From: a virus
Reading direction: 5' to 3' (one strand)
DNA length: 34,775 nucleotides
Virus record (IMG/VR): IMGVR_UViG_3300045988_044299
Positions 142 to 17,205 of the stretch are shown in pieces; position 1 is the first letter of the stretch; every line of letters starts with the position of its first letter. Below the pieces are notes generated by a model that did no database searches, was not told the origin of the DNA, and was given only the letters and a program-made list of their open reading frames with translations. A program made the translations under genes and the position numbers.

Positions 142-1781
142 AAGTAAAAGTAAACACGGAGAAAGACGAGATCATGTACTCCGGAAGAACATGGCACGGA
201 ATACTGGAAAAGAAGATCATCTGTCCGGAGGACGGACAGGACTACGCAGTATTTGATGGAGAAGCCAACAAAGTACTGCAAACAATAATTGACAGGATAG
301 ACCTGGGCGATCTGTTTGAAGCATCGTCGGAAGACACAGGAATACAGATCCAGGCATTCCAGATGGATAGATATATAGACGCCTATACCGGAATATGCAA
401 GATGCTGAAAGACGCAGATGCAAAGTTGAATATCATCTGGAAAAACAAAAAGGTAGTCCTGAGCGCACAACTCCGGCAGGACTACAGCCAGGACGAAGAG
501 TTCAACACAGCACAGGTGGACTTCACAATCGAAAAAAACTACAGGCCAGTGAATCACATCATATGCCTGGGGCAGGGAGATCTGAAGAACAGAGCTGTGA
601 TCCATCTGTTTTGCGATGAAAACGGAGGAATACAGCCATACGCAACAAAAGACATACCGCTTCAAGATAGCGACTATATCCTGGGAACAAACAGGAAAGT
701 GATGGACGGGGAGGACGAAGTAGTAGAGATCCTGGACTATCCAAACGCAGAAATCACAGAAAACTACATCCTGCTGAGCACACAGCCTTCCGACTGGAAA
801 AAGAACAGCACAGCATACTTCTTTCAGGACGACAACGACAAGTTCAAAGAAGTGGAAGAAGTAGAGGTCGAGTACAAGCTACAGAAGATCCAACCGTATG
901 ACTGGGCCGTGAATTTTTCAGAATACTATGTGAAAAGTGGAAGCACGTACAAGAATGTAGAAGGGCAGACAGTAAAGCAGCTTCAGACGTCACAGCCTTC
1001 TGACTGGAGCAAAAAGTACGAAGACTATTTCACAAAAAGCGGAAGCAGTTATACACCAGTAAAAGGCGTAGAGAGGACAACGTACAGAAAGCAGGCGAAG
1101 AAACCTTCTGACTGGTCAAAGAACTACAAAAACTATTTTGAATTCTACAGCGATGGAGTAACGAGCAAATACCAGAACGTCAGTGGAATCACAAAATACA
1201 AGTATGTATTGCAGACACGGAAACCGACCGACTGGGCGGACAGCTGCACATCTTACTACAAGAAGAAGAAAAAGGGCGGATATGAAAATGTCAGCAAAAC
1301 GAAGAAGAAAAAGGCTCCGGCATGGAGAGCAAAGACATACTACACCCGGATTTCTTACGAAGTACCGCCAGCCTGGAAGGCAAACCATTATTACACAGAA
1401 GTCAATACGACCAGTGCTCCGGCATGGAGCGCGAACAAATACTACACGCAGAATGATAACGTGGCCCCGGCATGGAGCCAGAACAAATACTACAGCGAAA
1501 CAGATGAAACTGTAGCACCTGCGTGGACAGCGAACAAATACTTCAAAATGGTCACGGATCAGTATGCTGTCATGGTACAGAACGCCGTGGAGCGAATGGA
1601 GAAAGCACACCAGGCCGATGACATGAAGATCGCCCTGGAAGAAACAGAGCAAGTATACGACGTGGGAGACATCGTGGGAACCAGCGAGGAAACGACGGGG
1701 ATCACGGCAGTCCAGGAAGTATGCAAAAAGATCATCAAGATAAACAATGATGATGTGACTATAACATACGAGGTGAATTAA
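3..1781 (+). CDS. Tail-tip/baseplate protein in the Tal position (siphovirus Gp37-like N-terminus); this is the downstream part, and the true start is ATG 34592 across the circular junction
   Basis: Long ORF immediately after the Dit-position gene. It is in frame with ATG 34592 through the 141-bp overlap. The C-terminal half carries short aromatic repeats. Confidence 0.7.
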   Translation: MDAYELDMAYGSDENNFTCTIDRASHCCTEGFFLYVEGEEYGGIVDKVKVNTEKDEIMYSGRTWHGILEKKIICPEDGQDYAVFDGEANKVLQTIIDRIDLGDLFEASSEDTGIQIQAFQMDRYIDAYTGICKMLKDADAKLNIIWKNKKVVLSAQLRQDYSQDEEFNTAQVDFTIEKNYRPVNHIICLGQGDLKNRAVIHLFCDENGGIQPYATKDIPLQDSDYILGTNRKVMDGEDEVVEILDYPNAEITENYILLSTQPSDWKKNSTAYFFQDDNDKFKEVEEVEVEYKLQKIQPYDWAVNFSEYYVKSGSTYKNVEGQTVKQLQTSQPSDWSKKYEDYFTKSGSSYTPVKGVERTTYRKQAKKPSDWSKNYKNYFEFYSDGVTSKYQNVSGITKYKYVLQTRKPTDWADSCTSYYKKKKKGGYENVSKTKKKKAPAWRAKTYYTRISYEVPPAWKANHYYTEVNTTSAPAWSANKYYTQNDNVAPAWSQNKYYSETDETVAPAWTANKYFKMVTDQYAVMVQNAVERMEKAHQADDMKIALEETEQVYDVGDIVGTSEETTGITAVQEVCKKIIKINNDDVTITYEVN

Positions 1782-1784
1782 AAC

Positions 1785-2849
1785 ATGGTGCATTTAATAA
1801 CAGGATATGCAGGCCACGGGCATGTGACGGCAGCAGACGACGCGCTGTACCATGCTGGAGTCTGTGGAACAGGAAAGTATGTGATGCGTACCGGGACAAT
1901 GTTTGCCGCAAGCGTAGAAAGCAGCAACGAGATCACGATAGGTAGCGGCGACCTGGTGAACCAGGGCCGACACATCAACATACCGACCAACGCAACAGAA
2001 AAAGCAACAATCAACAACGGAACACAGGGAAAGACGAGAAAAGACGTCATTGCGATCCGATACAAGCAGGACGCTTCGACAGGAGTGGAAAGCGCAGAGC
2101 TGATCGTACTACAAGGCGCATCAGTCAACACGGGACAGACACCAGCAAGGCCAGCACTGAAAAGTGGGAACTTATACGAAGGAGACGCGATCGACGACTT
2201 TCCACTGTATGAAGTAACTTTGAATAATCTGAACATTACGGCCGTGACAAAGCTGTTTGTGCCACTGCCGACATTATCAGGAATGTTCGATCTGATCTAT
2301 CCGGTAGGAGCGATCTACATGAGTGCGAGCAGCACCAATCCGGCAAACCTGTTCGGAGGAACATGGGAAGAAATCCAGGGCAAGTTCTTACTTGCAAGAG
2401 ACGGAAGCCATGAAGCAGGAACAACAGGAGGTAGTGAGAACGTAACACTGACCACAGAACAGATTCCTGCACACAATCATATAGGTGGGGAACATACGCA
2501 TACAGGCCCATCGCATACACACACGATAAATTCACACGGGCATACGGCAAGATGTACGTCAGCAGGTGCACACAGCCATAATGTTGACAGAAATAAGAAC
2601 GCTGCGTCGGGAACAGCGAGATATGCAGCACAGGCAGCTAAGGCGAAAACGACACACGGAACGTCATCGAACGGAGCGCATACACACGGCATTACTATCG
2701 GCGGATCTGGACAGCTGACAAGCAATGCAGCAGGAACCGGGAACACAGGATCAGGTGGAGCAGTGGCAACGAGCAACACAGGAGGCAGCCGGGCACACAG
2801 TAATATGCCCCCATATCTGGCTGTGTATGTTTGGAAGAGGACGAAGTAG
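1785..2849 (+). CDS. Tail fibre / receptor-binding-type protein with a C-terminal His-x-His repeat region
   Basis: 354-aa ORF in the tail-tip module. It has repeated HxH motifs (AHNH, EHTHT, SHTHT, SHGHT, AHSH, AHTH, RAHSNMPPY) and a Gly/Ser/Thr-rich tail, as in metal-binding fibre tips. Confidence 0.6.
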   Translation: MVHLITGYAGHGHVTAADDALYHAGVCGTGKYVMRTGTMFAASVESSNEITIGSGDLVNQGRHINIPTNATEKATINNGTQGKTRKDVIAIRYKQDASTGVESAELIVLQGASVNTGQTPARPALKSGNLYEGDAIDDFPLYEVTLNNLNITAVTKLFVPLPTLSGMFDLIYPVGAIYMSASSTNPANLFGGTWEEIQGKFLLARDGSHEAGTTGGSENVTLTTEQIPAHNHIGGEHTHTGPSHTHTINSHGHTARCTSAGAHSHNVDRNKNAASGTARYAAQAAKAKTTHGTSSNGAHTHGITIGGSGQLTSNAAGTGNTGSGGAVATSNTGGSRAHSNMPPYLAVYVWKRTK

Positions 2850-2865
2850 AAGGAGGTGAAGGAAC

Positions 2866-3723
2866 ATGAACGAAGTCTATGAGTACATGGACGGCTATGA
2901 TCATTCGAATAGATATAGCGACGACATGGTCTTCGAGGTGTCAAAAGAAGATAAAAGCATTTCAATAATTCGGAAACAGACACTGATCTCCGGGGAAAGA
3001 AATTCGCAGTATATCGCATTCCAGATGCCACGGTACTACGATGGCATTGACCTGTCAGAGAAGAATATTGAAGTAATCTATGTTACAGAGACAGGAATAT
3101 CAGACATCAACAAAGTGATCAATGTACGAAGAAATGAAGAATACCTTCTGTTCGGCTGGGTAGTTCCTGGCGGAGCACTTCAGGATCCTGGCACGCTGTC
3201 CTTCTGCATCGAGTTCGCAGGCGACGAGTACGTAATGAAGACTATGCCTGTCGAAGTGGAAGTCTTCGACGGAATGAACGGATCCGACATCATGGTGGAA
3301 CCGACTGGCCAGGTATGGTACATGCAGATCCAGAACCTGTGCAGCGAGACGTTGGAGAAAGCACAGAATCACGAAACGAATGCAGCTGTGTCCGAAAAAA
3401 ACGCACAGACCTATATGCAGAACGCACAGAACGCATACAGTCAGGCGAACCTGGCAAAAGAAAGCATACAGGGATCCACAAAGCAGATCACGGATAATAA
3501 GACCAGCATCGAGGAACTGAAGAAAGAGAACGCGCAGCTGAAGGCGAGACTGGACGCTGCACTTGCAGACTATACTGGATCAGCAGAAGGAGAGATCGCA
3601 GAGGCAAGGGTGGACAGAAAAGGAAAGACATACGCAACACTGGGGGCAGCAATCAGAGGGCAGTTCGACGAGATCGGGCTGTACATAGACGATGACGGCG
3701 ACATATGCCAGAAGGAGGACTAA
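2866..3723 (+). CDS. BppU-family baseplate upper protein with a coiled-coil C-terminal half
   Basis: The N-terminal pattern (SGERNSQYIAFQMPRYYDGIDLS ... LLFGWVVP ... GTLSFCIEF) is typical of BppU_N. A Q/N/A/K-rich heptad-like segment follows. Confidence 0.65.
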   Translation: MNEVYEYMDGYDHSNRYSDDMVFEVSKEDKSISIIRKQTLISGERNSQYIAFQMPRYYDGIDLSEKNIEVIYVTETGISDINKVINVRRNEEYLLFGWVVPGGALQDPGTLSFCIEFAGDEYVMKTMPVEVEVFDGMNGSDIMVEPTGQVWYMQIQNLCSETLEKAQNHETNAAVSEKNAQTYMQNAQNAYSQANLAKESIQGSTKQITDNKTSIEELKKENAQLKARLDAALADYTGSAEGEIAEARVDRKGKTYATLGAAIRGQFDEIGLYIDDDGDICQKED

Positions 3724-4941
3724 ATGGGTAAATTATTGACGAATGAAGTAGGCTTGCAGATGCTGGAAGAAATGAGACGACAGACAGCCATTTCGGAAGC
3801 AACAGCAAGAGATCAGATCGCAGCACTTGCGTCGCAGATGTCGGCGATCGCTAAGATTGTAAGAGATGGATATGGCAACGTATTAATGGACATCGGTGAT
3901 CAGTTGAACATTGACTGGACAGACGGATCAAAAAGCTACAACGTGCCGCATGACATTGTGCATTTTGCAAACGTCGACCTGAAGAACGGAGACAAGGTTC
4001 CAGGCATGTATCTTCAGTGGCATTTCTGTTCACCGTTCGGTGTTCAGTTCGATGCAGCAGAAGCATTCTATTATGCAGAGACAGAGCTGGCAGCAGGAAC
4101 CTACAACATTATCGTAGGCGACAACTGGGGCAATAATTGCAAGAAAAACAAACAGTATCAGTTCACACTGAGCAAGCCAGTTCCAGCAGGCGGACAGATT
4201 GCAGGATTCTATTCAATGCCGGACAAGGCGGCAGCAGAGTGGACAGTACAGACATTCACAGACGCAAAGAGTACTACACCGATTGAGACAGTGAAACCGA
4301 CAGCCGGATCCAATGGAACAAACCTTGGTACATTGTCATTTGCTGGAGACGGAAAACTGAACAGCTTGCAGCGCGTAGCGTATGGGTACAACAGATGGAG
4401 TCAGTCAGCAATCAGACAGTATCTGAACAGCGCAAAGGCAGCAGGACAGTGGTGGGAACCACAGCACAAGTGGGACAGATCACCAGCAGAACTTGCGTCG
4501 AAGCCTGGATTTCTGTCAGGATATTCAGACGACTTCCTGAACGCGATCAAACCTGTGAGAGTTCGCACAGCATTGAATACGGTCACAGATGCAGCTGTAG
4601 GAGCCTACGAAGACACATACGACAAGATCTTCCTTGCATCATTAGAGCAGGAGTTCATCACACCACAGGCGTCAGGCGTTGAGGGAGAAGCCTGGGACTA
4701 TTGGAAGCAGGCTGTTGAACGCAGCACACCGACACCGTGGTATAAGACATTCGCAGAAGGAGGACACCCGATCACATACGGCATTGATGGAAAGACTTCG
4801 GCGCAGTACGTGCGGTTGCGCAGTGCGTACAGAGGCGGCGCGAGCAATACGTGGAATGTGAACGCGTCCGGCTACGTCTTCAGCGGCTACGTCACCGCAG
4901 TGAGCAGCCTTCGCTTCGCCCCGGCTTGCGTCATCTGCTAA
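3724..4941 (+). CDS. DGR target protein 1, putative receptor-binding protein with a C-terminal variable (C-type-lectin-fold-like) region
   Basis: The last ~45 codons match the template repeat except at TR adenines. The gene sits directly after BppU and directly before avd-TR-RT. Confidence 0.8.
   Translation: MGKLLTNEVGLQMLEEMRRQTAISEATARDQIAALASQMSAIAKIVRDGYGNVLMDIGDQLNIDWTDGSKSYNVPHDIVHFANVDLKNGDKVPGMYLQWHFCSPFGVQFDAAEAFYYAETELAAGTYNIIVGDNWGNNCKKNKQYQFTLSKPVPAGGQIAGFYSMPDKAAAEWTVQTFTDAKSTTPIETVKPTAGSNGTNLGTLSFAGDGKLNSLQRVAYGYNRWSQSAIRQYLNSAKAAGQWWEPQHKWDRSPAELASKPGFLSGYSDDFLNAIKPVRVRTALNTVTDAAVGAYEDTYDKIFLASLEQEFITPQASGVEGEAWDYWKQAVERSTPTPWYKTFAEGGHPITYGIDGKTSAQYVRLRSAYRGGASNTWNVNASGYVFSGYVTAVSSLRFAPACVIC
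4801..4930 (+). repeat. DGR variable region VR1
   Basis: Aligns to TR 5436-5559. Outside the AAC tract there are 10 differences, all at TR adenines. VR1 is 6 nt longer than the TR. Confidence 0.9.
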
Positions 4942-4955
4942 AGCCATCACATAAT

Positions 4956-4979
4956 CTCCGGCACCCACGGATGCCGGAG
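4956..4979 (+). promoter_or_regulatory. Hairpin 3' of VR1 (8-bp stem ctccggca/tgccggag, 8-nt loop cccacgga); candidate DGR target-recognition element
   Basis: Perfect inverted repeat with no T-run after it. The same geometry and the same loop core (ccacg) occur after VR2. Confidence 0.6.
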
Positions 4980-4996
4980 AGGAAAGGGAAAAAGAA

Positions 4997-5416
4997 ATGT
5001 CAGTACCGGAAGGGCAGAGAGGGAAAGGCAAGTTCACAGTGCTTACAAAAGCGAACATGCTAAGTATCTATACAATTAAAATCTGCTGCAATAAAAAGGT
5101 ATTCCTTCCAGAATATCAGCACGCACTTACAGACGACATCATTCGGACAGCGAAAGACATCTTCATGCACTGCTGGACGGCGAATAATATCAGAGTGGGA
5201 AAAGACGAAGAAAAACGGAAGGAACGAAGAAGACTTCAGGAGCAGGCAGCGAACGACTGCAACAATCTCCTGGCACTTATGCAGATGGCGCAGACTCTGT
5301 TCCATCTGAAACTAAAGAGGATTAAATACTGGGGAGAAAGGACGATAGAAGTCAGAACCCTGATAAGATCCTGGATTGAATCAGATACAAAACGCTACTC
5401 ACAAGAGCAGCGATAA
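4997..5416 (+). CDS. avd: Accessory variability determinant (Avd-like basic helical-bundle protein)
   Basis: 139-aa basic, helix-rich ORF in the canonical position between the target gene and the TR. The assignment rests on position and composition, not on a strong motif. Confidence 0.7.
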   Translation: MSVPEGQRGKGKFTVLTKANMLSIYTIKICCNKKVFLPEYQHALTDDIIRTAKDIFMHCWTANNIRVGKDEEKRKERRRLQEQAANDCNNLLALMQMAQTLFHLKLKRIKYWGERTIEVRTLIRSWIESDTKRYSQEQR

Positions 5417-5435
5417 GTATATGGATGTAGGCTGC

Positions 5436-5559
5436 GCGCAGAACGTGCGGTTGCGCAGTGCGAACAGAGGCAACGCGAACAATACGTGGAATGTGAACGC
5501 GTCCGGCAACGTCAACAACAACAACGCAGTGAACAGCAATCGCTTCGCCCCGGATTGCG
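5436..5559 (+). repeat. DGR template repeat (TR)
   Basis: 124 nt rich in AAC/AAT codons. It is homologous to VR1 (4801-4930) and VR2 (21728-21830) with mismatches only at its adenines. Its 3' end (attgcgcagat) diverges from the sequence shared by both VRs (cttgcgtcatc). Confidence 0.9.
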
Positions 5560-5722
5560 CAGATAAGTGGACGAGAAGCCACGCTGTAGGCGTGGTGTCT
5601 GCGAATGATAGACGCAAGGAGCCGAAATCCATGCCTGGAAACAGGCGAACAACACTGTCGTGATGCAAGATGCTTCAGCGAAGCATGGCGCTATATACGC
5701 GGCGGAAACAACAGAATAATAG
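5560..5722 (+). ncRNA. TR-to-RT spacer, probable structured part of the DGR RNA
   Basis: Three hairpins: 5579-5595 (ccacgc/gcgtgg), 5633-5646 (gcctg-GAAA-caggc) and 5670-5686 (atgcttc-agc-gaagcat). There is no credible ORF. Confidence 0.4.
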
Positions 5723-6874
5723 GTGAATTATATGGATGAAGACATCAAGGAGCAAGTGATCGGCTTCGAGGCGCTGTATAAATCAATGCACCGATGCAAG
5801 AAGAACGTGCTCTGGAAGGACTCTGCGGCGAGTTTCTATCTGAATGGGATAGAACAGGCGCTGAAGCTGGAAAAACAGCTGAAAGAAGGCACGTACAAGC
5901 CACGGCCGCCGAAGAAGTTCGAGATCACACATCCGAAAAGAAGAGAAGCTGTGAGCATAGCATTCAGGGATCGCGTGTACCAGAGATCATTGAACGACAA
6001 TGTGATATATCCAATTATGACACAATCGTTCATACATGCGAACATGGCCTGCCAGAAAGGGAAAGGAACGGATGCGGCGGAGAATCTGTTGGACGAGTTC
6101 CTGAAACACTGGTACAGGCTGCACGGCCTGGAAGGCTATGTCTTACAATGCGATATACGCGGATATTACCCAAACATGAGTCACAAAGTAGCAGAGGAGA
6201 CGTTCCGAAAGAAACTGCCTCCGGTGATCTACGAGATGACAGAAAAGATCCTTCGCGAACAGTATGAGGGAGAGAAGGGTTATAATCCGGGAAGCCAGAT
6301 GATCCAGATCGCAGGTATATCAGTCCTGGATCCAATGGATCACATGATAAAGGAGCAGCTTCACACGAAAGAGTTCGAGAGATACATGGACGACTTTCAA
6401 ATGTTTGGAGAGACTATCGAAGAATTGCAATGCCGCCGGAACGCAATAGAGGCATATCTGAACGAAAGAGAGTTCGAGCTGCATCCGAAGAAGACAAGGA
6501 TCTATCCAATCAAAGAAGGAATCAAGTTCCTGGGCTTCACGCACAGGCTGACGAGCACAGGAAAAGTTATCCGGATAATAGATCCGAACAATGTCAAGCA
6601 GGAGCGAAAGAAGCTCCGGCGCATGGTCGGTCTGGTGAAGAAGGGCCAGATGACCAGAAAGAAGGTTGACGAGTGCTTCAAGGCCTGGAAGGCACATGCT
6701 GCGAAAGGCAATTCCACAAAGCTGATCAACCGGATGAACAAATACTATGCAGATCTATGGAAGGAGGATCAGAAGCATGAGCATGACCATGACCAGAAGA
6801 AAGAGAACTGTGAAAGAACAGAGGGAAAGGGAAGACATGCAGGCACAGCTGGAGAAGCAGCAGGCGACACTTGA
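5723..6874 (+). CDS. DGR reverse transcriptase
   Basis: Contains the YMDDF catalytic motif, a GSQMIQIAG motif (the SQ signature of DGR RTs) and KGKGTDAA and FLGF motifs. It lies immediately downstream of the TR. The start could be GTG 5723 or ATG 5732. Confidence 0.9.
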   Translation: MNYMDEDIKEQVIGFEALYKSMHRCKKNVLWKDSAASFYLNGIEQALKLEKQLKEGTYKPRPPKKFEITHPKRREAVSIAFRDRVYQRSLNDNVIYPIMTQSFIHANMACQKGKGTDAAENLLDEFLKHWYRLHGLEGYVLQCDIRGYYPNMSHKVAEETFRKKLPPVIYEMTEKILREQYEGEKGYNPGSQMIQIAGISVLDPMDHMIKEQLHTKEFERYMDDFQMFGETIEELQCRRNAIEAYLNEREFELHPKKTRIYPIKEGIKFLGFTHRLTSTGKVIRIIDPNNVKQERKKLRRMVGLVKKGQMTRKKVDECFKAWKAHAAKGNSTKLINRMNKYYADLWKEDQKHEHDHDQKKENCERTEGKGRHAGTAGEAAGDT

Positions 6875-6959
6875 ATACGTGGCAGCGATGGCTGACATCG
6901 ACCTGCCCGTAGAAGAAGCAGCTGAAGGAACAGACATCGACGACGAAGAGGAGGCGTGA
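6777..6959 (+). CDS. Small acidic hypothetical protein (60 aa)
   Basis: AAGGAGG at 6761-6767 lies 9 nt before ATG 6777. The ORF overlaps the low-complexity 3' tail of the RT ORF in another frame. Confidence 0.5.
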   Translation: MSMTMTRRKRTVKEQREREDMQAQLEKQQATLEYVAAMADIDLPVEEAAEGTDIDDEEEA

Positions 6960-6961
6960 GC

Positions 6962-7231
6962 ATGGCAGCAAGAAAGAAAACAGCTGCGGAGGCTGTAGAG
7001 ACTGAAACAGCGATCCAGGAAACAACAGAAGACCAGAAAGCGGCAGACGTTCAGACGGATCCGGAGGAAAAGCAGGAAGACCAGGAAGAGGAAGAACTGA
7101 GTCCGATCGCGAAGAGATACCAGGGATTCTACAAGAAAGGATTCTGGACGAAGAAAATGCTGAAGAATATGGTCGGAAAGAAGATCACAGAAAGAGAGTA
7201 CGAGATCATCACAGGAGAGGCGTATGCGTAA
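6962..7231 (+). CDS. XkdX-like small phage protein
   Basis: The C-terminus (FYKKGFWTKKMLKNMVGKKITEREYEIITGEAY) resembles the XkdX family signature. GAGGAGG lies 7 nt upstream of ATG 6962. Confidence 0.6.
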   Translation: MAARKKTAAEAVETETAIQETTEDQKAADVQTDPEEKQEDQEEEELSPIAKRYQGFYKKGFWTKKMLKNMVGKKITEREYEIITGEAYA

Positions 7232-7448
7232 CCTGGAGCCGCACGAAGGTGGAACTGGAAGCCTGCTGGAGATCGTAGACATGATGTGCAGCGCAGTCGA
7301 AGCGATGGCAGGAGTCGTCAGAAAGCAGGCTATCCTGATCGAACAGGCGGAGATCGCAGGAGCAGTCTTCGACGATGATCTTTCAGAAGCACGTAAACAA
7401 TTAGAAACCGATCTGGACAAGATCGAGTATAAAATGAGGAGGTTATAA
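7224..7448 (+). CDS. Hypothetical protein (74 aa)
   Basis: ORF with an AGGAGAGG ribosome-binding site. It overlaps the previous stop codon and lies between the XkdX-like gene and the holin. Confidence 0.5.
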   Translation: MRNLEPHEGGTGSLLEIVDMMCSAVEAMAGVVRKQAILIEQAEIAGAVFDDDLSEARKQLETDLDKIEYKMRRL

Positions 7449-7452
7449 CAGC

Positions 7453-7884
7453 ATGATGACAAAAGAAACTATCTGCACAGCTGTAGGCGTTGCAGGAAGC
7501 GCAATCGCAGCAGCGTTCGGAGGATGGGACGAGGCCCTTGTGACTCTGATCATTTTCATGGTGATCGACTATCTTTCAGGCCTGGCAGTAGCAGGCATCT
7601 TCCACAAGAGCAACAAGTCAGAGAATGGAGCACTGGAGAGCCGTGCGGGTTGGAAAGGACTGTGCAGGAAGTGCGTGACACTTCTGTTCGTTCTGATCGC
7701 ATACCGCCTGGATCTGGCAATCGGCGTGGACTACATCAGAAACGCTGTGATTATTGGATTCATGGCTAATGAGCTGATCAGCATTGTAGAGAACGCCGGA
7801 CTGATGGGAATTCCGCTTCCGGGAGTGATTCAGAATGCCATCGAAATTCTGACACAAAAAGCACAGAACAATGAGGAGAAATAA
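7453..7884 (+). CDS. Holin (phage_holin_4_1 / toxin-secretion holin family)
   Basis: Has three or more hydrophobic segments and family-typical strings (DYLSGL ... GWKGLCRK ... NELISIVENAGLMGIP). It lies directly upstream of the endolysin. Confidence 0.85.
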   Translation: MMTKETICTAVGVAGSAIAAAFGGWDEALVTLIIFMVIDYLSGLAVAGIFHKSNKSENGALESRAGWKGLCRKCVTLLFVLIAYRLDLAIGVDYIRNAVIIGFMANELISIVENAGLMGIPLPGVIQNAIEILTQKAQNNEEK

Positions 7885-7886
7885 AA

Positions 7887-9350
7887 ATGGATAAACAGAC
7901 ATTTATCAAGAAGATCGCCGCATACGTGAAAAAGTATGCGGCACAGTACGGCATCAAGGTATACAGTCCGATCATCGCACAGGCGATCCTGGAGTCCGGC
8001 TGGGGAGAATCAAAACTTGCAGCAGTATATCACAACTACTTCGGGCTGAAATGCGGAACTGCCTGGAAAGGTAAATCTGTAAACATGACCACACAGGAAG
8101 AGTACACGGCCGGAACCCTGACAACGATCAAAGATAACTTCAGAGCCTACAGCAGCATGGAAGAGGGCGTGAAAGGCTACTTCGAGTTCATTCAGCTGAC
8201 CAGATACAGCAACCTGAAGGGAATCACTGATCCGAAGACATATCTGAACACAATCAAAGCGGACGGATATGCGACAAGCTCCAGCTATGTGAAGAATGTG
8301 TATGCACTGATCACACAGTACAAGCTGACACAGTACGATCCTGTGAAAAACGTGGATAAAAAAGTGGATAATGTGAAGTATTCAAGACAGGCAGTCGTGG
8401 ATCTTGTGGAAAGCTGGGTAGGAAAGAAAGAGTCAGACGGATCATACAAGTCAATCATTGACATCTACAACAGTTTTACGGGCAAACTTCCACGTAGTAC
8501 GAAGATGGAATATGGATGGGCGTGGTGCGCGTGTACCTGGTCAGCACTTGCGGTAGCCTTGAAGTACACGCCGATCATGCCGATCGAAATTTCCTGCTAT
8601 TACCTGATCGAAGCAGCGAAGGAGATGGGCGTATGGGTAGAAAACGACGCATACGTGCCAAACATCGGAGACGCTGCACTGTATGACTGGGAAGACACAG
8701 GAAAAGGAGATAACACAGGAAATCCGGATCACGTCGGAACTGTGACCTATGTCAATAAGTCAGCAGGCTACTTCGTGGTGACAGAAGGAAACTACAGCGA
8801 CAGCGTGAAGAAAAGAACCGTGTCCATCAATGGCAGATATATCCGCGGATTTATCGTACCGAAGTACGGCACGACCACAGCAGTCAGTGCTCCGGTTCAG
8901 GTAGCCGGAAAGAGCACTTCAACCGTAGCACACGAAGTCATCGCCGGACAGTGGGGCAACGGGGAAGATAGAAAGAAAGCCCTGAAGGCAGCAGGATATG
9001 ATCCGGCAGTTATCCAGAAAGAAGTCAACAAGATCCTGAACGGATCCGCAGCGACTACAGGCAAAACACAGCCAGCAGATCAGCCGATTACAAAGACAGT
9101 GAAGGCAACCTGCGGAGCTAAGAAGTTCAACAAGAGCCTGGCAGCGACATACAAGACAACGGCGAACCTGTACTGTAGAAATGACGCAGGAAAGAACAAG
9201 AAAGCCCTGTGCCTGATCCCGAAAGGAACGAAGGTACACAACTACGGATATTACAACGTAGCGAACGGAGTGAAGTGGTTATACATCACTGTCACCCTGG
9301 ACGGAACAGAGTACATCGGATTCTGTTCAAAAGAATATCTGAGCAAATAG
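7887..9350 (+). CDS. Multidomain endolysin: N-acetylglucosaminidase, CHAP-like domain, CW_7 repeat and SH3-like C-terminus
   Basis: AQAILESGWG glucosaminidase motif. Cys/His CHAP-like region (WAWCACTW ... DHVGTV). GQWGNGEDRKKALKAAGYD CW_7-like repeat. The C-terminus is SH3b-like. Confidence 0.9.
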   Translation: MDKQTFIKKIAAYVKKYAAQYGIKVYSPIIAQAILESGWGESKLAAVYHNYFGLKCGTAWKGKSVNMTTQEEYTAGTLTTIKDNFRAYSSMEEGVKGYFEFIQLTRYSNLKGITDPKTYLNTIKADGYATSSSYVKNVYALITQYKLTQYDPVKNVDKKVDNVKYSRQAVVDLVESWVGKKESDGSYKSIIDIYNSFTGKLPRSTKMEYGWAWCACTWSALAVALKYTPIMPIEISCYYLIEAAKEMGVWVENDAYVPNIGDAALYDWEDTGKGDNTGNPDHVGTVTYVNKSAGYFVVTEGNYSDSVKKRTVSINGRYIRGFIVPKYGTTTAVSAPVQVAGKSTSTVAHEVIAGQWGNGEDRKKALKAAGYDPAVIQKEVNKILNGSAATTGKTQPADQPITKTVKATCGAKKFNKSLAATYKTTANLYCRNDAGKNKKALCLIPKGTKVHNYGYYNVANGVKWLYITVTLDGTEYIGFCSKEYLSK

Positions 9351-12779: not shown

Positions 12780-12833
12780 GAGAAAATCCCTCCTTCCTTT
12801 GTTTTTTCAGCCGTTACTCAGACTGATAACTAA

Positions 12834-12862
12834 AGTATAGGATCGCAACAGAGGGAAAGCAA
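12834..12862 (-). promoter_or_regulatory. Candidate promoter for the 12779-12486 gene
   Basis: On the minus strand: TTGCTT, 17 nt, TATACT. Confidence 0.4.
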
Positions 12863-12886
12863 GGAAAACTGAGAGGAGATGAAAAG

Positions 12887-12973
12887 ATGAAATACTACGG
12901 AGTTCCGATCATCTGCGGGATAATCGGGGCACTCATAGGAATCGCTATATCACACGCAATAGGATTGCTGTAA
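12887..12973 (+). CDS. Possible 28-aa hydrophobic peptide
   Basis: Translation is MKYYGVPIICGIIGALIGIAISHAIGLL, with a GAGGAG ribosome-binding site. It is very short, so confidence is low. Confidence 0.35.
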   Translation: MKYYGVPIICGIIGALIGIAISHAIGLL

Positions 12974-13021
12974 TGATGGAACGGGTAATGCCAATACAAA
13001 GTAAAAAAAGGAGGAATGAAC

Positions 13022-13189
13022 ATGGCAGCAGTTGACAGAAGAAAAGAAACTGTAAACCGTAAGGCCGAAGACGCACGTGAGTTCGTTGAACTGCTGGAGC
13101 AGCTGACAGAAGCAGACAAGGAAAGAATCAAGTACGTTATGATCGGCCTGAAGATGGGCGAAACAGTTCGCGCAGGATTGACGGCATAG
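13022..13189 (+). CDS. Small hypothetical protein (55 aa), paralogue of 15522-15665
   Basis: AGGAGG ribosome-binding site. It shares the first 16 nt (acatggcagcagttga) and a C-terminal pattern with the second copy. Confidence 0.5.
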   Translation: MAAVDRRKETVNRKAEDAREFVELLEQLTEADKERIKYVMIGLKMGETVRAGLTA

Positions 13190-13250
13190 GATGTCCCCGA
13201 CAGAAATGTCGGGGAGTACATAGAAAAGGAGAAAACGAGGAGGGACAGGC

Positions 13251-13799
13251 ATGACAACGAAAGAACAGGAAAGACAGGCAATCGAAGAGATCAGAAAGAT
13301 CGTGGAAGGGCTTGGAGAAAATAGTTATGTAGGGTTTGCAATGGAGGGCGTTCTGGAGCTGGCAGAGGAAAACATCAGAGAAGACACTGCGTACAGTATG
13401 AAACGCTGCGCAGAGATCGCGCAGGAACAAACAGACGAGCTGAAGGAAGAGATCAAGACACTAAAGAAAAGAAATGAAACCATACACAGAGTTGAGATAG
13501 AAAACAAGGATGCAGCCGCCAGACTGAGCCTGGAAAACGAAAGATTAAGAAAAGAAATAAAAGAAAATCAGATCCCGGAAGAGCTGATGCACGAATGTTA
13601 CTGCATGGCATATGACAAAGAAGCAGGAGCACAGAAAAAGATGGAGCAGGCAGCGGATCAGATGGCAGAGGCAGCAATAAAAGGAGAAGACACACAGAGC
13701 CTTGCGAAAGAATACCAGGCACAGAAAAGCAACAGAAGAAGATACGAGAAAATCATGCAGCAGTTAGACAAGATAGAGAAAAGGAAGGCGGGAAGATAA
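13251..13799 (+). CDS. Coiled-coil hypothetical protein
   Basis: 182-aa E/K/Q-rich ORF with a GAGGAGGG ribosome-binding site. Confidence 0.6.
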   Translation: MTTKEQERQAIEEIRKIVEGLGENSYVGFAMEGVLELAEENIREDTAYSMKRCAEIAQEQTDELKEEIKTLKKRNETIHRVEIENKDAAARLSLENERLRKEIKENQIPEELMHECYCMAYDKEAGAQKKMEQAADQMAEAAIKGEDTQSLAKEYQAQKSNRRRYEKIMQQLDKIEKRKAGR

Positions 13800-13987
13800 T
13801 GGCAAGAACAAAGAAAAGCGGCTTCCGAAGATGTCCGATCTGTGGACACCACGCTGATCGGAAAGACATGCGGTACACGACAGACGCAAACGGGATCCGG
13901 TGCAGACTGGTCTGCTGGGACTGCTACGATCAGATCATGGTGAAAGGCTATGACGATGCAGACGTGAACGAAGGCTATGAATATTAA
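13799..13987 (+). CDS. Small Cys-rich (zinc-ribbon-like) protein
   Basis: Contains CPICG ... CRLVCWDC. Its start overlaps the previous stop (TAATG). Confidence 0.55.
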   Translation: MARTKKSGFRRCPICGHHADRKDMRYTTDANGIRCRLVCWDCYDQIMVKGYDDADVNEGYEY

Positions 13988-14002
13988 GCGAAGGGCACAG
14001 GA

Positions 14003-14332
14003 ATGGCAATCAAAAGAACGGTAGAAACAGACGTTTACTGCGATGTGTGTGGCGAGTGGATCATAGGCTGGAGATCCAACGACCAGGGAACCAGCAAACT
14101 ATGGGCGGCATATTTTGCAAGAAAAAAAGGCTGCACAGTTGGGGAAAAGGTTATATGCAAAAAGTGCAGGATCAAGAAGCGGATCCAGACATGCAGCATA
14201 CAGCGAAAAATCGGAAGTGCAGGAAGGGACAGCGATGGAAGCTGCATGGGATTCGGAAGCGAAACATCAGACGAGCCACTGGAGAAGTGCAAACGGTGTA
14301 TTGCGTGCACATCTTACCAGTGGAAAGAATAG
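14003..14332 (+). CDS. Cys-rich hypothetical protein
   Basis: Contains CDVCG ... CKKC ... CKRCIAC motifs. Confidence 0.55.
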   Translation: MAIKRTVETDVYCDVCGEWIIGWRSNDQGTSKLWAAYFARKKGCTVGEKVICKKCRIKKRIQTCSIQRKIGSAGRDSDGSCMGFGSETSDEPLEKCKRCIACTSYQWKE

Positions 14333-14346
14333 TTCAAAGGATAGAA

Positions 14347-14409
14347 GCCGAAACGGTCAGCAATGACCGTCCACCGGAGATAACCTCCCGGTGCTGACGA
14401 TGGCAGGTT
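14347..14409 (+). ncRNA. Type II hammerhead ribozyme, copy A (predicted cleavage after C14371)
   Basis: Order of elements: GCC, GAAA, stem III (cggtca-gcaa-tgaccg), U, C (GUC site), stem I (caccgg ... ccggtg), CUGACGA, U, GGC. The stem I loop aacct can pair with aggtt at 14405-14409. Confidence 0.8.
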
Positions 14410-14494
14410 GAAGTCAGGTGTTCAAGCAGAGCAACGCTATAAAAGGAAAATGCACTTCCGCAGGAAGCATGGATAGCGCAAAGGAGGCAAAAGA

Positions 14495-14806
14495 ATGAAA
14501 CTGAAAGAATTAACGAACAACCAGAAACGCAGAGACTTTCTGGAGGACTATACCGGATGGAATTTATGGCTCACTGTGCCGGATGTAAGCGAGAAGTATT
14601 ATTCGTATCCACTTCCAGACAACTCAATGATTGTAGTCAAAGAAACCGAACACGCAAAAGGTGATGACTGGTGGAAAAAGGATGAGCGTGGCGGTTATTA
14701 CGTCACCACAGAGTATTATCTTCTGGAGGGTGATTGGAAGAGATTTGCAGACTGCAAAAAGAGCAAGACACAGATTATCGAGCATCTGAGAGAAATCATG
14801 AGATGA
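14495..14806 (+). CDS. Hypothetical protein (103 aa)
   Basis: ORF with an AAGGAGG ribosome-binding site. Confidence 0.6.
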   Translation: MKLKELTNNQKRRDFLEDYTGWNLWLTVPDVSEKYYSYPLPDNSMIVVKETEHAKGDDWWKKDERGGYYVTTEYYLLEGDWKRFADCKKSKTQIIEHLREIMR

Positions 14807-14882
14807 GGAAAGAACAGGGACATCATGAAAGACTATGACAATGCAGATATGAACAAAGATTACGAATATTAAGGAGGGCAAC

Positions 14883-15239
14883 ATGTTTATTTTATCACAG
14901 AACAAAGAGAAGCTGTACAACCTGTCCGGACACATTGAAGGAATCGGGTACGAAGAGACAAAGGAGTATGTCAAAGGAAAGAAGGAAGACAAGATCAGAC
15001 ACACACTCATGGTGTATGACGGATGCTGTGAAGAAGTAGCAGAGTACGAAACAAAAGAGGATTGTATGCTGATCCTGTATGCGGTCTTCAAAGCAATGGA
15101 ACAGGGAGAGAATGCACTGGAGCTTCCAACACAGGAAGAAACGGCCAAACAGAAGGAACTTATGAAACAGGTTATTGAAGCAGGCGGCGAGATCGCAAAA
15201 GAAGCGACGGAGTTGCTGAAGGAAATGTTCAAAGGATAG
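14883..15239 (+). CDS. Hypothetical protein (118 aa)
   Basis: ORF with an AAGGAGGG ribosome-binding site. Its last codons overlap the conserved 5' flank of hammerhead B. Confidence 0.6.
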   Translation: MFILSQNKEKLYNLSGHIEGIGYEETKEYVKGKKEDKIRHTLMVYDGCCEEVAEYETKEDCMLILYAVFKAMEQGENALELPTQEETAKQKELMKQVIEAGGEIAKEATELLKEMFKG

Positions 15240-15241
15240 AA

Positions 15242-15314
15242 GCCGAAACGGGGCACAGGCCCCGTCCGGTCACGATGGCAACGTGATCGCTGACGATGGC
15301 AAGCTGAAAGCCAT
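15242..15314 (+). ncRNA. Type II hammerhead ribozyme, copy B (predicted cleavage after C15266)
   Basis: Order of elements: GCC, GAAA, stem III (cggggc-acag-gccccg), U, C, stem I (cggtcacg-atggcaa-cgtgatcg), CUGACGA, U, GGC. The stem I loop atggc can pair with gccat at 15310-15314. Confidence 0.8.
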
Positions 15315-15521
15315 CCGATGAACATTGTGAAAACATAGCGGCGCGTGCAGGCTGCCAGAATCCCGCATAGTAGGTCATCAGGTTTTGAGCAGCTTTTTAA
15401 TGAGAAAAGCGCAGCACAGTGTCACACATTGCCAGGAAGGGAGTGGTGATATACATGACTGCATCACACGGATGCAGATAGACCATGCCGAAAGGCAGTA
15501 CATAGAAAGGAAGTGAGCTAC

Positions 15522-15665
15522 ATGGCAGCAGTTGAGAACAACAGGCCTGATCCCATGAAGGCATTCAAAGCGATCGCCATGATCCTGAACGCAAGAGAAG
15601 AAGGCGTGAAGGTACGCCTGACGAGCGTCAGGAAGGTAGAAGAAGATGTCAGAAAAGCAGGGTAA
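15522..15665 (+). CDS. Small hypothetical protein (47 aa), paralogue of 13022-13189
   Basis: The ATG context is identical to the first copy. A 10-bp-stem hairpin follows at 15672-15705. Confidence 0.45.
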   Translation: MAAVENNRPDPMKAFKAIAMILNAREEGVKVRLTSVRKVEEDVRKAG

Positions 15666-15860
15666 AAGAAAAGCCTTCCGGTATGCTTGGCGGCTCCGGA
15701 AGGCTACACAATGGCTTCCAGACAATGCTGAGAACCAAAGTACACATCAATAGTATTGTACAGCAGACGACAGCGGAAGTCAACAAAGCCGCGCATTTCT
15801 TGAACGTCTTAAATCGGCCTTGTAATGGATACTAACAAGTCTACGAAGGAAGTATAAGAC

Positions 15861-16775
15861 ATGAGTAAGAGAAAGAGAAGGACTGTATATGTCCCATACG
15901 ACTATGAAGCAGCATATCAGAACAGCCTGGAACAGATGGAGGAAGAGAACGAGAAGAGACTCCTGAAGGAAGGCAAGGTGAAGAACATATATGCCACAAA
16001 GGAGATCAGATCGGGAGATCAGTTGGAGATTGAAATATATCCAGAGTTCACAAGGAGACAGGAGAACCAGATCCCGGATGAAGGAAGAAGAAAGAAACAG
16101 AGACAGGCACAGAAGAACCTGAACGATAAGAACAGCAGGAAGATGTGCGAGCGCCTGATCCTGGAGAACTTCGACAATAGGGATATATGGGCGACATTTA
16201 CATACACAGAAGAACCTGAGACGCTGGAAGAAGCGGTCAGGAACATGCAGAACTTCATCAAGAGACTGAACTACAAGCGTAAGAAGATGGGACTGAAGAA
16301 CGCGAGGTATGTCTATACAACAGAGTGCGGAAGCAAGGGAAGGTTCCATCACCATATCGTCATGGATGGAGATCTGGACATGGACACAGTGGAAGCGACC
16401 TGGAACAAGGGCAAGAGGAACCACCTTCGCAGATTGCAGAAAGACGAAAACGGACTTGTAGGTGCTGCAAGGTACATCACAAAAGAAAAAGAGAGAAAGA
16501 GCAAATACCAGAAGACATGGAACGCTTCCACAGGGCTGAGAAAGCCAAAGGAGAAAGTGAACCACTACAAGACGAAACAATATCATGTAAACAGGATCGT
16601 GAAGGGGGATCTGAAGATCTGCGACCACCTGACAAAATGGTACGGCGACATGTATGAGTTCGCAGAGGCAGAAGTGAAGTACAACACCTTCAACGGACGA
16701 TTCTACATATACGCACGAATGCGAGCGAAAGGAGCAAAGAAAGAAGATGAACATGCGATACGCAAGAAGGAGTGA
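15861..16775 (+). CDS. HUH-type rolling-circle replication initiator-like protein (Rep)
   Basis: GRFHHHIVMD is an HUH motif. A downstream ARYITKE tyrosine motif is present. The N- and C-termini are basic. Confidence 0.7.
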   Translation: MSKRKRRTVYVPYDYEAAYQNSLEQMEEENEKRLLKEGKVKNIYATKEIRSGDQLEIEIYPEFTRRQENQIPDEGRRKKQRQAQKNLNDKNSRKMCERLILENFDNRDIWATFTYTEEPETLEEAVRNMQNFIKRLNYKRKKMGLKNARYVYTTECGSKGRFHHHIVMDGDLDMDTVEATWNKGKRNHLRRLQKDENGLVGAARYITKEKERKSKYQKTWNASTGLRKPKEKVNHYKTKQYHVNRIVKGDLKICDHLTKWYGDMYEFAEAEVKYNTFNGRFYIYARMRAKGAKKEDEHAIRKKE

Positions 16776-17205
16776 AGACACGGAGCAGATCAACGTGATC
16801 AGCTGGGCGATGTGGAACGAGAACGCACACCCGGAGCTGAAGCTGCTGCATCACTGCCCGAATGGCGGAAGTCGGAACAAGGCCGAAGCCGTGAAGCTGA
16901 AACAGATGGGCGTCAAAGCAGGAATTCCTGATCTGAGCCTTCCAGTGCCGAAGGGCATCTATAACGGTCTGTACATCGAGATGAAGTACGACAAAGGAAC
17001 GATAGAAAAGAGCCAGAAGGAAATGCTGAAAGCCCTGGCAGACGCAGGGCACTACTGCGTTGTATGTTACGGGGCAGAAGAAGCAATCAAGATCCTGAAA
17101 GAGTACATAAACCTGAAGCCGATCGACACAGGAAAGGGCGAGGACACGATGCTGTGTCAGAATCTGACCGTACACAAAAACAGGAAAGTGTCACCGATGC
17201 GATAG
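16747..17205 (+). CDS. VRR-NUC domain nuclease
   Basis: PD-(D/E)xK pattern: HCPNGGSRNKAEAVKLKQMGVKAGIPDLSL ... LYIEMK ... SQKEML. Confidence 0.8.
   Translation: MNMRYARRSEDTEQINVISWAMWNENAHPELKLLHHCPNGGSRNKAEAVKLKQMGVKAGIPDLSLPVPKGIYNGLYIEMKYDKGTIEKSQKEMLKALADAGHYCVVCYGAEEAIKILKEYINLKPIDTGKGEDTMLCQNLTVHKNRKVSPMR

Follow-up and report, generated by a model that had tools for sequence, protein, structure and literature searches.

The window analysed here is a 34,775-nt stretch of viral DNA (IMG/VR record IMGVR_UViG_3300045988_044299), and our subject is copy B, one of two type II hammerhead ribozymes (copies A and B) on its + strand. We think it likely, from comparison of sequences, that copy B is a functional hammerhead in an early transcript, where it would act as a module that makes 5′ ends and separates cistrons, and that is interchangeable with a tRNA. 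Comparison with relatives shows a predicted, covarying RNA of ~180 nt (15267-15444) that runs from the hammerhead cut site to a Shine-Dalgarno sequence, with copy B as its front end. An earlier reading of the letters of the window (the sequence-only reading) had recognized the hammerhead, which stands, and had missed the larger RNA of which copy B is the 5′ part. It is quite possible, although we would not yet commit ourselves to it, that the ~180 nt from the cut site represent an undescribed class of leader RNA from phages of gut Lachnospiraceae, with five helices, an H-type pseudoknot and a possible long-range pseudoknot near the ribosome-binding site. The 5′ end of this leader would be made by either a hammerhead or a tRNA or tRNA-like element, and the hammerhead would share parts with the leader and refold after the cut.

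Copy B matches the type II hammerhead consensus at every core position, including the A15.1-U16.1 pair and H17, and has the type II topology, with stems I and III capped by loops and stem II open. Every pair of stems I, II and III passed a pairing assertion. In the covariance-model check that the sequence-only reading had proposed, Rfam model RF02276 aligned copy B end to end with 32.9 bits, above chance expectation (E=4.5e-5 in a local search; E=0.0045 when the full window was searched on both strands with all 4227 Rfam families). An extra U (U15297) between A9 and stem II is an insertion in the Rfam model; relatives have U, A, G or no nucleotide there. The intact core, the topology, the RF02276 alignment and the pairing stems of homologues support copy B as a type II hammerhead of a common prophage lineage, with a predicted cut after C15266, as had been proposed; stem III, stem I with its one G-U pair and the 3-bp stem II had also been drawn correctly. 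Taken as a hammerhead alone, copy B is an ordinary additional member of RF02276. Repeat searches and the Rfam scan found no third hammerhead copy in the window, and none of the 4227 models, on either strand, matched it beyond the hammerheads at E up to 1. We also noted that the B-type hammerhead of locus L187, near-identical to copy B, was not reported by an Rfam E-value search of 47 kb; Rfam filters can miss the sub-lineage of copy B, which routine annotation probably under-counts.

We searched IMG/VR viral contigs for the hammerhead family with a pattern that fixes the core and the stem II bases only, AGCCGAAAC-N(10-30)-GTC-N(15-40)-CTGACGATGGC. The exact core with variable spacers was present in at least 120 contigs. 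Among the matches listed, there were 88 distinct inserts, in which 78 stem III and 79 stem I sequences were represented; 87.5% of the inserts could form a stem III of at least 5 bp versus 7% of shuffles, and 79.5% a stem I of at least that length versus 1.6%. In each of the eight pairs of stem I, which is also helix P1 of the leader, both partners vary among family members, and the stem I G-U of copy B is A-U in L231. The relatives of copy B in L187, L302, L242 and L231 keep the 5′ half of the ribozyme (GCC-GAAA-stem III-GUC); changes fall in the stem III loop, or stem I stays paired. The longest helix between loop I and the first 12 nt of the tail measured 4.73 bp on average with a ribozyme's own tail versus 3.95 bp (s.d. 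0.08) with swapped tails, and the identity of this predicted family-wide pairing with the pseudoknot known for type II hammerheads is supported. The stop codons of upstream genes abut the ribozyme in most loci; copy B itself starts 1 nt past the stop codon of open reading frame (ORF) 14883-15239. A separate observation concerns L003 (IMGVR_UViG_3300033112_000310, 112 kb), which has seven exact matches to the family pattern in 8.5 kb and, over ~8 kb (580-8220), at least 11 type II hammerhead matches that all point the same way and lie ~500-1800 nt apart; this array is an extreme example of an operon punctuated by ribozymes.

The tails of copy B-like hammerheads are alignable for ~150 nt beyond the ribozyme. 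A motif search for the leader RNA, CAGGTTTT-N(4-14)-TTTTTAAKGNGAAAA, run on viral contigs and GTDB genomes, gave at least 120 matches in each, those in GTDB being nearly all from Lachnospiraceae or other Clostridia. In an alignment of 57 non-redundant leader copies (A1), RNAalifold alone recovered helices P1, P4, S2 and P5 (Table 1), with compensatory changes in 14 of 19 pairs. The model that we tested has 50 pairs, eight helices and two pseudoknots. In A1, 83.9% of its cells are paired versus 71.2% in shuffles, and its covariation score is 0.387 versus 0.171, a value that none of 500 shuffles reached; slid registers scored at most 0.115. Within the H-type pseudoknot, each of the S2 pairs 95-116 to 99-112 (A1 columns) occurs as at least two pair types. 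In the candidate long-range helix between loop I and UUGCCA, pair 24-184 occurs as GC 11, AU 10 and UG 4 times, but its central GGC/GCC pairs are constant, so that support is partial. Searches with Rfam 15 (4227 models, E up to 10) of the leader RNA in the window and in hammerhead-led and tRNA-led loci returned the hammerhead and noise only. Some other readings of the region were rejected. The sequence GGTCAACAGG...TTTTTAAKGN was considered as a -35/-10 promoter, but the last -10 position is unconserved and the flanks covary as RNA helices; a 43-aa TTG ORF (15385-15516) was considered as coding, but is unconserved, with alignment indels that are not multiples of three.

We collected at least 138 distinct leader copies with the full signature, from Lachnospiraceae phages and prophages. 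Among the matches listed, 82 of the 138 (~60%) are hammerhead-led, 41 are led by a tRNA recognized by ARAGORN, seven have only a T-loop motif, and eight have none of these. tRNA-Met, Ile, Arg and Ser were each confirmed in single tRNA-led loci; the tRNA of L122 is a tRNA-Met. The tRNA 3′ end lies a few nt ahead of P1, the same place as the predicted hammerhead cut. A profile built from 21 aligned members not labelled hammerhead-led had a single match in the window (15274-15449; 70 bits, E=4e-21), which spans loop I to the Shine-Dalgarno sequence. In two hybrids, L232:61-256(-) and L256:4650-4845(-), a tRNA-like element with a T-loop stands in place of GCC-GAAA-stem III-GUC, and a relic of the 3′ core, CUGACGAGGGC or CUGCAAAGGC, is retained. 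We infer that the slot before the leader would be a slot for 5′-end formation, filled either by a self-cleaving ribozyme or by a substrate of host tRNA processing. The composite, a type II hammerhead whose 3′ half is common to a structured leader and which a tRNA can replace, seems to lack any description in Rfam 15 or the literature that we searched; nothing specific on hammerhead/tRNA interchange or on the leader RNA was found there, and supplementary or unpublished descriptions could exist. One further locus, L129:1778-2564, carries in order a tRNA-Met, the leader RNA, a small ORF and a twister-P1-like match (56.3 bits; gathering score 67.2), so that a second ribozyme class seems to close this unit.

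The loop–tail pairing of copy B requires more caution. Loop I AUGGC (15275-15279) is complementary to GCCAU (15310-15314), and the sequence-only reading had taken this distal pairing as a covarying pseudoknot. The complementarity is indeed perfect, but the covariation belongs elsewhere: GCCAUC covaries with GAUGGC, its partner in P2. This hairpin, which had been listed as a competing hairpin and a caveat, is real, being a conserved, covarying helix. Pair 43-57 is GC in 39, AU in 17 and unpaired in one of the 57 sequences; 24 sequences have UA and 19 have CG at pair 42-58; and column 57 covaries with column 43 and not with the invariant G of loop I. Members led by a tRNA build P2 from strands unrelated to loop I, such as GCAGC/GCUGC. 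P2 is mutually exclusive with hammerhead nucleotides G8 and A9 and with stem II, and carries a G-A or G-G mismatch in most hammerhead-led members. The distal GCCAU of copy B, which doubles as a P2 strand, lies 9 nt further 3′ than the in-register partner.

The occurrence of GCC in the tail differs between hammerhead-led members (n=35; proximal only 20, distal only 6, both 9, neither 0) and the others (n=22; proximal only 1, distal only 3, both 2, neither 16). Since all 35 hammerhead-led members have one, this comparison suggests that the ribozyme needs a nearby GCC as partner for loop I. The six distal-only members are the window and its like, and the proximal site in the window's subgroup is GCU; in this subgroup the loop I partner could be the distal GCCAU.

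The proposed course of events is as follows. An early polycistronic transcript of the + strand of a temperate Lachnospiraceae phage would contain copy B. Stems II, III and I would fold during transcription while loop I pairs with GCUG at the proximal site or with GCCAU at the distal one; in the latter case the P2 strand would also be held away. The RNA would then cut itself after C15266. Hammerhead cleavage leaves a 5′ product ending in a 2′,3′-cyclic phosphate and a 3′ product starting with a 5′-OH. Thus, the last part of the upstream mRNA would be the stem III hairpin, followed by one nucleotide that bears the cyclic phosphate. The downstream RNA would begin, with a 5′-OH, directly at the first pair of stem I, so that no overhang is left. 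In bacterial mRNA decay, a terminal hairpin and a paired 5′ end are both expected to protect, and we would expect both ends left by the cut to be protective. The 5′ fragment, held by just 3 bp, would depart after cleavage, and GAUGGC (15295-15300, comprising G8, A9 and the stem II strand) would refold with GCCAUC (15310-15315) into P2. Loop I, now free, may exchange its nearby partner (GCC or GCU) for UUGCCA (15429-15434), which adjoins the Shine-Dalgarno sequence. In the alternative copies the tRNA would be cut by host RNases.

The leader is followed by short reading frames. The mini-ORF of the window encodes MTASHGCR and contains a 7-bp hairpin (15459-15465/15471-15477). L187 and L242 have an 8-codon ORF, MTALISAD, at the same place with a different palindromic hairpin, and the layout with a hairpin that differs in sequence yet pairs is found in L187, L231 and L242. 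More widely, the next reading frame after the leader encodes R-x-P-P within its first 14 codons in 109 of the 138 copies (RAPP 42, REPP 41, RSPP 17 and RGPP 7), among the matches listed. This frame (for example L122:1767-1800, L008, L165 and L306) often runs into the Shine-Dalgarno sequence of the gene after it. The feature is absent from the window, which, with its closest relatives, carries the 8-codon mini-ORF instead. Of these motifs, RAPP and RGPP are known to arrest ribosomes (PMC10951233, PMC12992588), and the R-x-P-P mini-ORF hints at a translational control unit. Our most likely guess is that the leader RNA is a cis-regulatory element that binds a ligand, in the manner of an aptamer, or a protein; the large number of unpaired yet invariant nucleotides, the pseudoknots and the placement against the Shine-Dalgarno sequence fit such a role.

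Table 1. Positions of copies A and B, of the RNA elements downstream of copy B and of two phage genes in the window
Feature	Position	Strand	Remarks
Hammerhead copy A, type II	14346-14412	+	RF02276, 42.8 bits, above gathering score 37
Upstream 14 nt common to copies A and B	15227-15240	+	Left part of 25-nt direct repeat
Hammerhead copy B, type II	15241-15309	+	RF02276, model positions 1-66 of 66
Stem II, 5′ strand GCC	15242-15244	+	Pairs with 15298-15300 (G15242-C15300, C15243-G15299, C15244-G15298); 3 bp
Core G12 A13 A14 (GAA)	15245-15247	+	Rfam alignment
Stem III hairpin	15248-15265	+	7 bp, A15248-U15265 (A15.1-U16.1) to C15254-G15259; loop ACAG
C17 (unpaired H17)	15266	+	Predicted scissile bond 15266/15267, from position in Rfam alignment
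Stem I (P1 of downstream RNA)	15267-15289	+	8 bp, C15267-G15289 to G15274-C15282; wobble G15269-U15287
Loop I, AUGGCAA	15275-15281	+	GGC invariant across family
Core C3 U4 G5 A6 C7 G8 A9 (CUGACGA)	15290-15296	+	Rfam alignment
Stem II, 3′ strand GGC	15298-15300	+	
P2 hairpin	15295-15315	+	GAUGGC (15295-15300) / AAGCUGAAA / GCCAUC (15310-15315)
Core domain	15323-15421	+	Closed by P4, 15323-15329/15415-15421; P4 94.5% paired
H-type pseudoknot	S1 15340-15343/15353-15356; S2 15345-15351/15362-15368	+	
Junction GGUCAUCAGGUUUU	15373-15386	+	Near-invariant
P5 hairpin	15389-15398/15404-15412	+	Loop AAUGA
UUGCCA	15429-15434	+	Complements loop I UGGCAA (15276-15281); directly 5′ of Shine-Dalgarno sequence; candidate long-range partner
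Shine-Dalgarno-like GGAAGGGAG and mini-ORF	15435-15481	+	ATG 15455, TAG 15481, 8 codons
Serine integrase		-	
Rolling-circle-type Rep	15861-16775		phrog_3584, PF23343; in replication/partition module

Several observations weigh against copy B as an active ribozyme that makes 5′ ends. Its 32.9 bits fall ~4 bits short of the RF02276 gathering score of 37 bits; clear family members in L003, L005 and L012 likewise score 25.9-36.2 bits, and the Rfam cut-off is a curation convenience and not a biological feature. The proximal, canonical tail of copy B offers only UGGC/GCUG, with two wobble pairs. In A1, covariation of loop I with either the proximal AAGCY or the distal partner did not exceed that in shuffles, because the GGC of loop I never varies. 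By nearest-neighbour energies, the hammerhead secondary structure of copy B (-27.2 kcal/mol) is less stable by 5.4 kcal/mol than the fold in which P2 replaces stem II (-32.6 kcal/mol); co-transcriptional folding or the distal pseudoknot may therefore be required for activity. The minimum free energy fold of 15238-15330 (-35.8 kcal/mol) is also not the hammerhead, a result that is uninformative alone as tertiary contacts are unmodelled. Moreover, the sequences compared are mutually related, so that the counts are not independent, and adjacency to a tRNA is comparative evidence for a role in processing that falls short of proof.

Since stem II and P2 compete for the same GGC, and since the downstream domain resembles an aptamer in its many invariant unpaired nucleotides and its pseudoknots, copy B might be an allosteric ribozyme in which that domain senses a ligand or protein and chooses between stem II and P2, making cleavage conditional; regulated cleavage was raised as a possibility for phage hammerheads (Perreault et al., PMC3088659). 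We judge this unlikely: ~40% of the elements have a tRNA only and no ribozyme, so that the function of the domain cannot be control of a ribozyme, and the mismatched P2 (G-A or G-G) of most hammerhead-led members would compete poorly. The stability of P2 over stem II, the weak proximal pseudoknot and the score under the Rfam cut-off would also suit a decayed, catalytically dead hammerhead, its sequence kept as P1 and P2 parts of the downstream RNA, and such relics exist, as L232 and L256 keep the 3′ core without the 5′ half. However, the 5′ half of the ribozyme lies outside the downstream RNA and yet is intact in copy B and in L187, L302, L242 and L231, no core position of copy B departs from the consensus, and the GCC tail partner, present in 35 of 35 hammerhead-led members, is absent from most tRNA-led ones. 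We thus regard a dead copy B as improbable.

Another explanation would have copies A and B act jointly, excising the 895-nt segment with its two genes, either as an mRNA in its own right or in circular or ligated form. The two ribozymes have the same orientation and flank ORFs 14495-14806 and 14883-15239, and prophage hammerheads are typically found in clusters that flank genes (PMC3088659); spliced or circular products were, however, looked for by Perreault et al., and none was found (PMC3088659). The closest relatives carry B without A, so that B acts alone there, and we hold joint excision to be very improbable; excision as a monocistronic type of mRNA fits a functional, cistron-separating copy B and is hardly a rival to it. 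Least credible, in our estimation, is that the downstream structure acts as single-stranded DNA, for instance as a single-strand origin for the nearby Rep, with the hammerhead unrelated to it. Single-strand origins are strand-specific folded elements, and a rolling-circle-type Rep is indeed encoded downstream of the element, in many relatives as well as in the window. Its boundaries, however, are those of an RNA, with an RNA processing site (hammerhead cut or tRNA 3′ end) at the 5′ side and a Shine-Dalgarno sequence with a start codon at the 3′ side; in addition, P1 is the hammerhead's own stem I, and G-U pairs are frequent at covarying positions.

We also examined how copies A and B are related. 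The 25-mer GTTCAAAGGATAGAAGCCGAAACGG occurs exactly twice in the window (14332-14356 and 15227-15251), and no match arose in 100 shuffles even with three mismatches allowed; the common core CTGACGATGGCA also occurs exactly twice (14394-14405 and 15290-15301). Both identities had been reported in the sequence-only reading. The minimum free energy fold of copy A (-28.8 kcal/mol) is the canonical hammerhead, with stems II, III and I. Within the shared 14 nt upstream of copy B, ORF 14883-15239 ends with its last codons and a TAG stop (15237-15239). In L302, L242 and L156, GTTCA(R)AGGATAGA stands in front of a B-type hammerhead, but the gene before it is another one: the homologue of ORF 14003-14332 is joined directly to the hammerhead. 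In L187 and L231 it is the homologue of ORF 14883-15239 that is joined to the B-type hammerhead. No A-type hammerhead was found in any of these five loci. The stems of copy A resemble those of the unrelated contigs L120 and L059; the stems of copy B resemble those of L187, L302, L242 and L231. The direct repeat bounds an 895-bp segment (14357-15251), comprising the copy A stems and ORFs 14495-14806 and 14883-15239, which is missing from the closest relatives (L302:1400-1740 and L242).

Judged by these resemblances, copies A and B are from two separate hammerhead lineages and are not duplicates that diverged in place. Compensatory change between the two copies, which had earlier been put forward as strong internal evidence for the fold, is therefore weaker evidence than the covariation across the family; that the stems differ and still pair is correct. 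As an RNA-level role for the upstream 14 nt, we considered pairing of UGUUCA (15226-15231) with UGAACA (15318-15323), which would lengthen stem II, and rejected it. This pairing is present in the window, L187 and L302 and absent from L156 and other subgroups, so the 25-nt identity is best read as a putative junction, of recombination or of a cassette, located at the ribozyme's conserved 5′ edge.

The window has the genome type of a temperate tailed phage, with the majority of its genes on the + strand. Its structural and lysis genes encode a minor tail protein, an endolysin, the large terminase, the portal, the major head protein and a tape measure protein, and its replication and partition genes include a VRR-NUC nuclease, ParA and ParB besides Rep. 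The Rep gene lies ~400 nt downstream of the conserved RNA element 3′ of copy B, and many relatives have the same order. Scanning the + strand from 12800 to 16000 found neither promoter-like nor terminator-like sites, and copies A and B are therefore probably parts of one long transcript. A near-identity search of 13200-16800 against 50,697 GenBank phage records gave zero matches and so no annotated relative for comparison; relatives came from IMG/VR viral contigs and from prophages of Lachnospiraceae, such as those of Fusicatenibacter, Hominifimenecus, Blautia, Dorea and Roseburia; L242 lies in Fusicatenibacter faecihominis CLA-AA-H277.

Two side observations concern other parts of the window. 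A small conserved protein (...F.AIA.IL..R....V.L..V...; 15523-15665), for which no family match was found, is always encoded just upstream of the rolling-circle Rep in this phage group and is also present in L033, L051, L069 and L207. Further away, 3724-6874 holds a diversity-generating retroelement, with a variable repeat (4801-4891) at the 3′ end of a Hoc-like ORF (3724-4941), a template repeat (5436-5526) of 87% identity to it, the checked differences being template adenines, and a reverse transcriptase (5723-6874).

Thousands of bacterial and phage hammerheads are known, and their biological role is still described as unclear (PMC6765202). Interchange between hammerhead and tRNA bears on this question of what bacterial hammerheads do: the same RNA headed by either element, together with the swap hybrids, amounts to a natural experiment that points to 5′-end formation. 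If the proposal is right, the ribozyme would be a one-shot maturation device for a regulatory RNA, which would give direct comparative evidence on the purpose of bacterial hammerheads. It also brings a new, well-supported structured RNA together with a model of its refolding.

Among known systems, the nearest are the type II hammerheads themselves, which are common in bacteria, depend on the pseudoknot between loop I and the 3′ tail for fast cleavage, and in prophages form clusters that flank genes and cleave in vitro (Perreault et al. 2011, PMC3088659). Copy B resembles these members of RF02276 in its catalytic core, capped stems I and III, short open stem II and intergenic prophage site near another hammerhead. 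Unlike the typical member, it pairs its loop with a tail partner that is weak at the proximal site (GCUG) or perfect but 9 nt further 3′ (GCCAU), and its stem I, the 3′ half of its core and its tail belong to a larger RNA with an alternative hairpin, P2. The arrangement also recalls tRNA punctuation and the t-elements of plant mitochondria (PMC1920247), where a compact folded RNA between cistrons marks the place of the cut. In contrast to t-elements, the hammerhead would need neither RNase P nor RNase Z and is predicted to leave a 5′-OH and not a 5′-phosphate.

Like RAGATH-8 (RF02687), one of the RAGATH motifs (RNAs associated with genes associated with twister and hammerhead ribozymes), the leader is a structured RNA of the same phage neighbourhoods. 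In L128:2248-2617(-), a RAGATH-8 match (152.9 bits; 2364-2617) ends ~90 nt upstream of a 3′ module also found in the leader, consisting of GGUCAACAGGUUUU (YAACAGGUUUU) and a U-run hairpin, and L133, L138 and L177 have the same arrangement. Loci of this RAGATH-8 type lack the remainder of the leader RNA, and some carry tandem copies of the module. RAGATH-8 was rejected as the identity of the leader RNA, as a search of the window with RF02687 gave nothing at E up to 10; it is a neighbour of the 3′ module and distinct from it. Finally, in the glmS ribozyme and in engineered hammerhead insulators, the mRNA downstream of a self-cleaving leader RNA receives its 5′ end from the cut, which affects the fate of that mRNA. 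Unlike both systems, the cut by copy B is predicted to leave a fully paired 5′ end, which would be expected to protect the downstream RNA rather than expose it.

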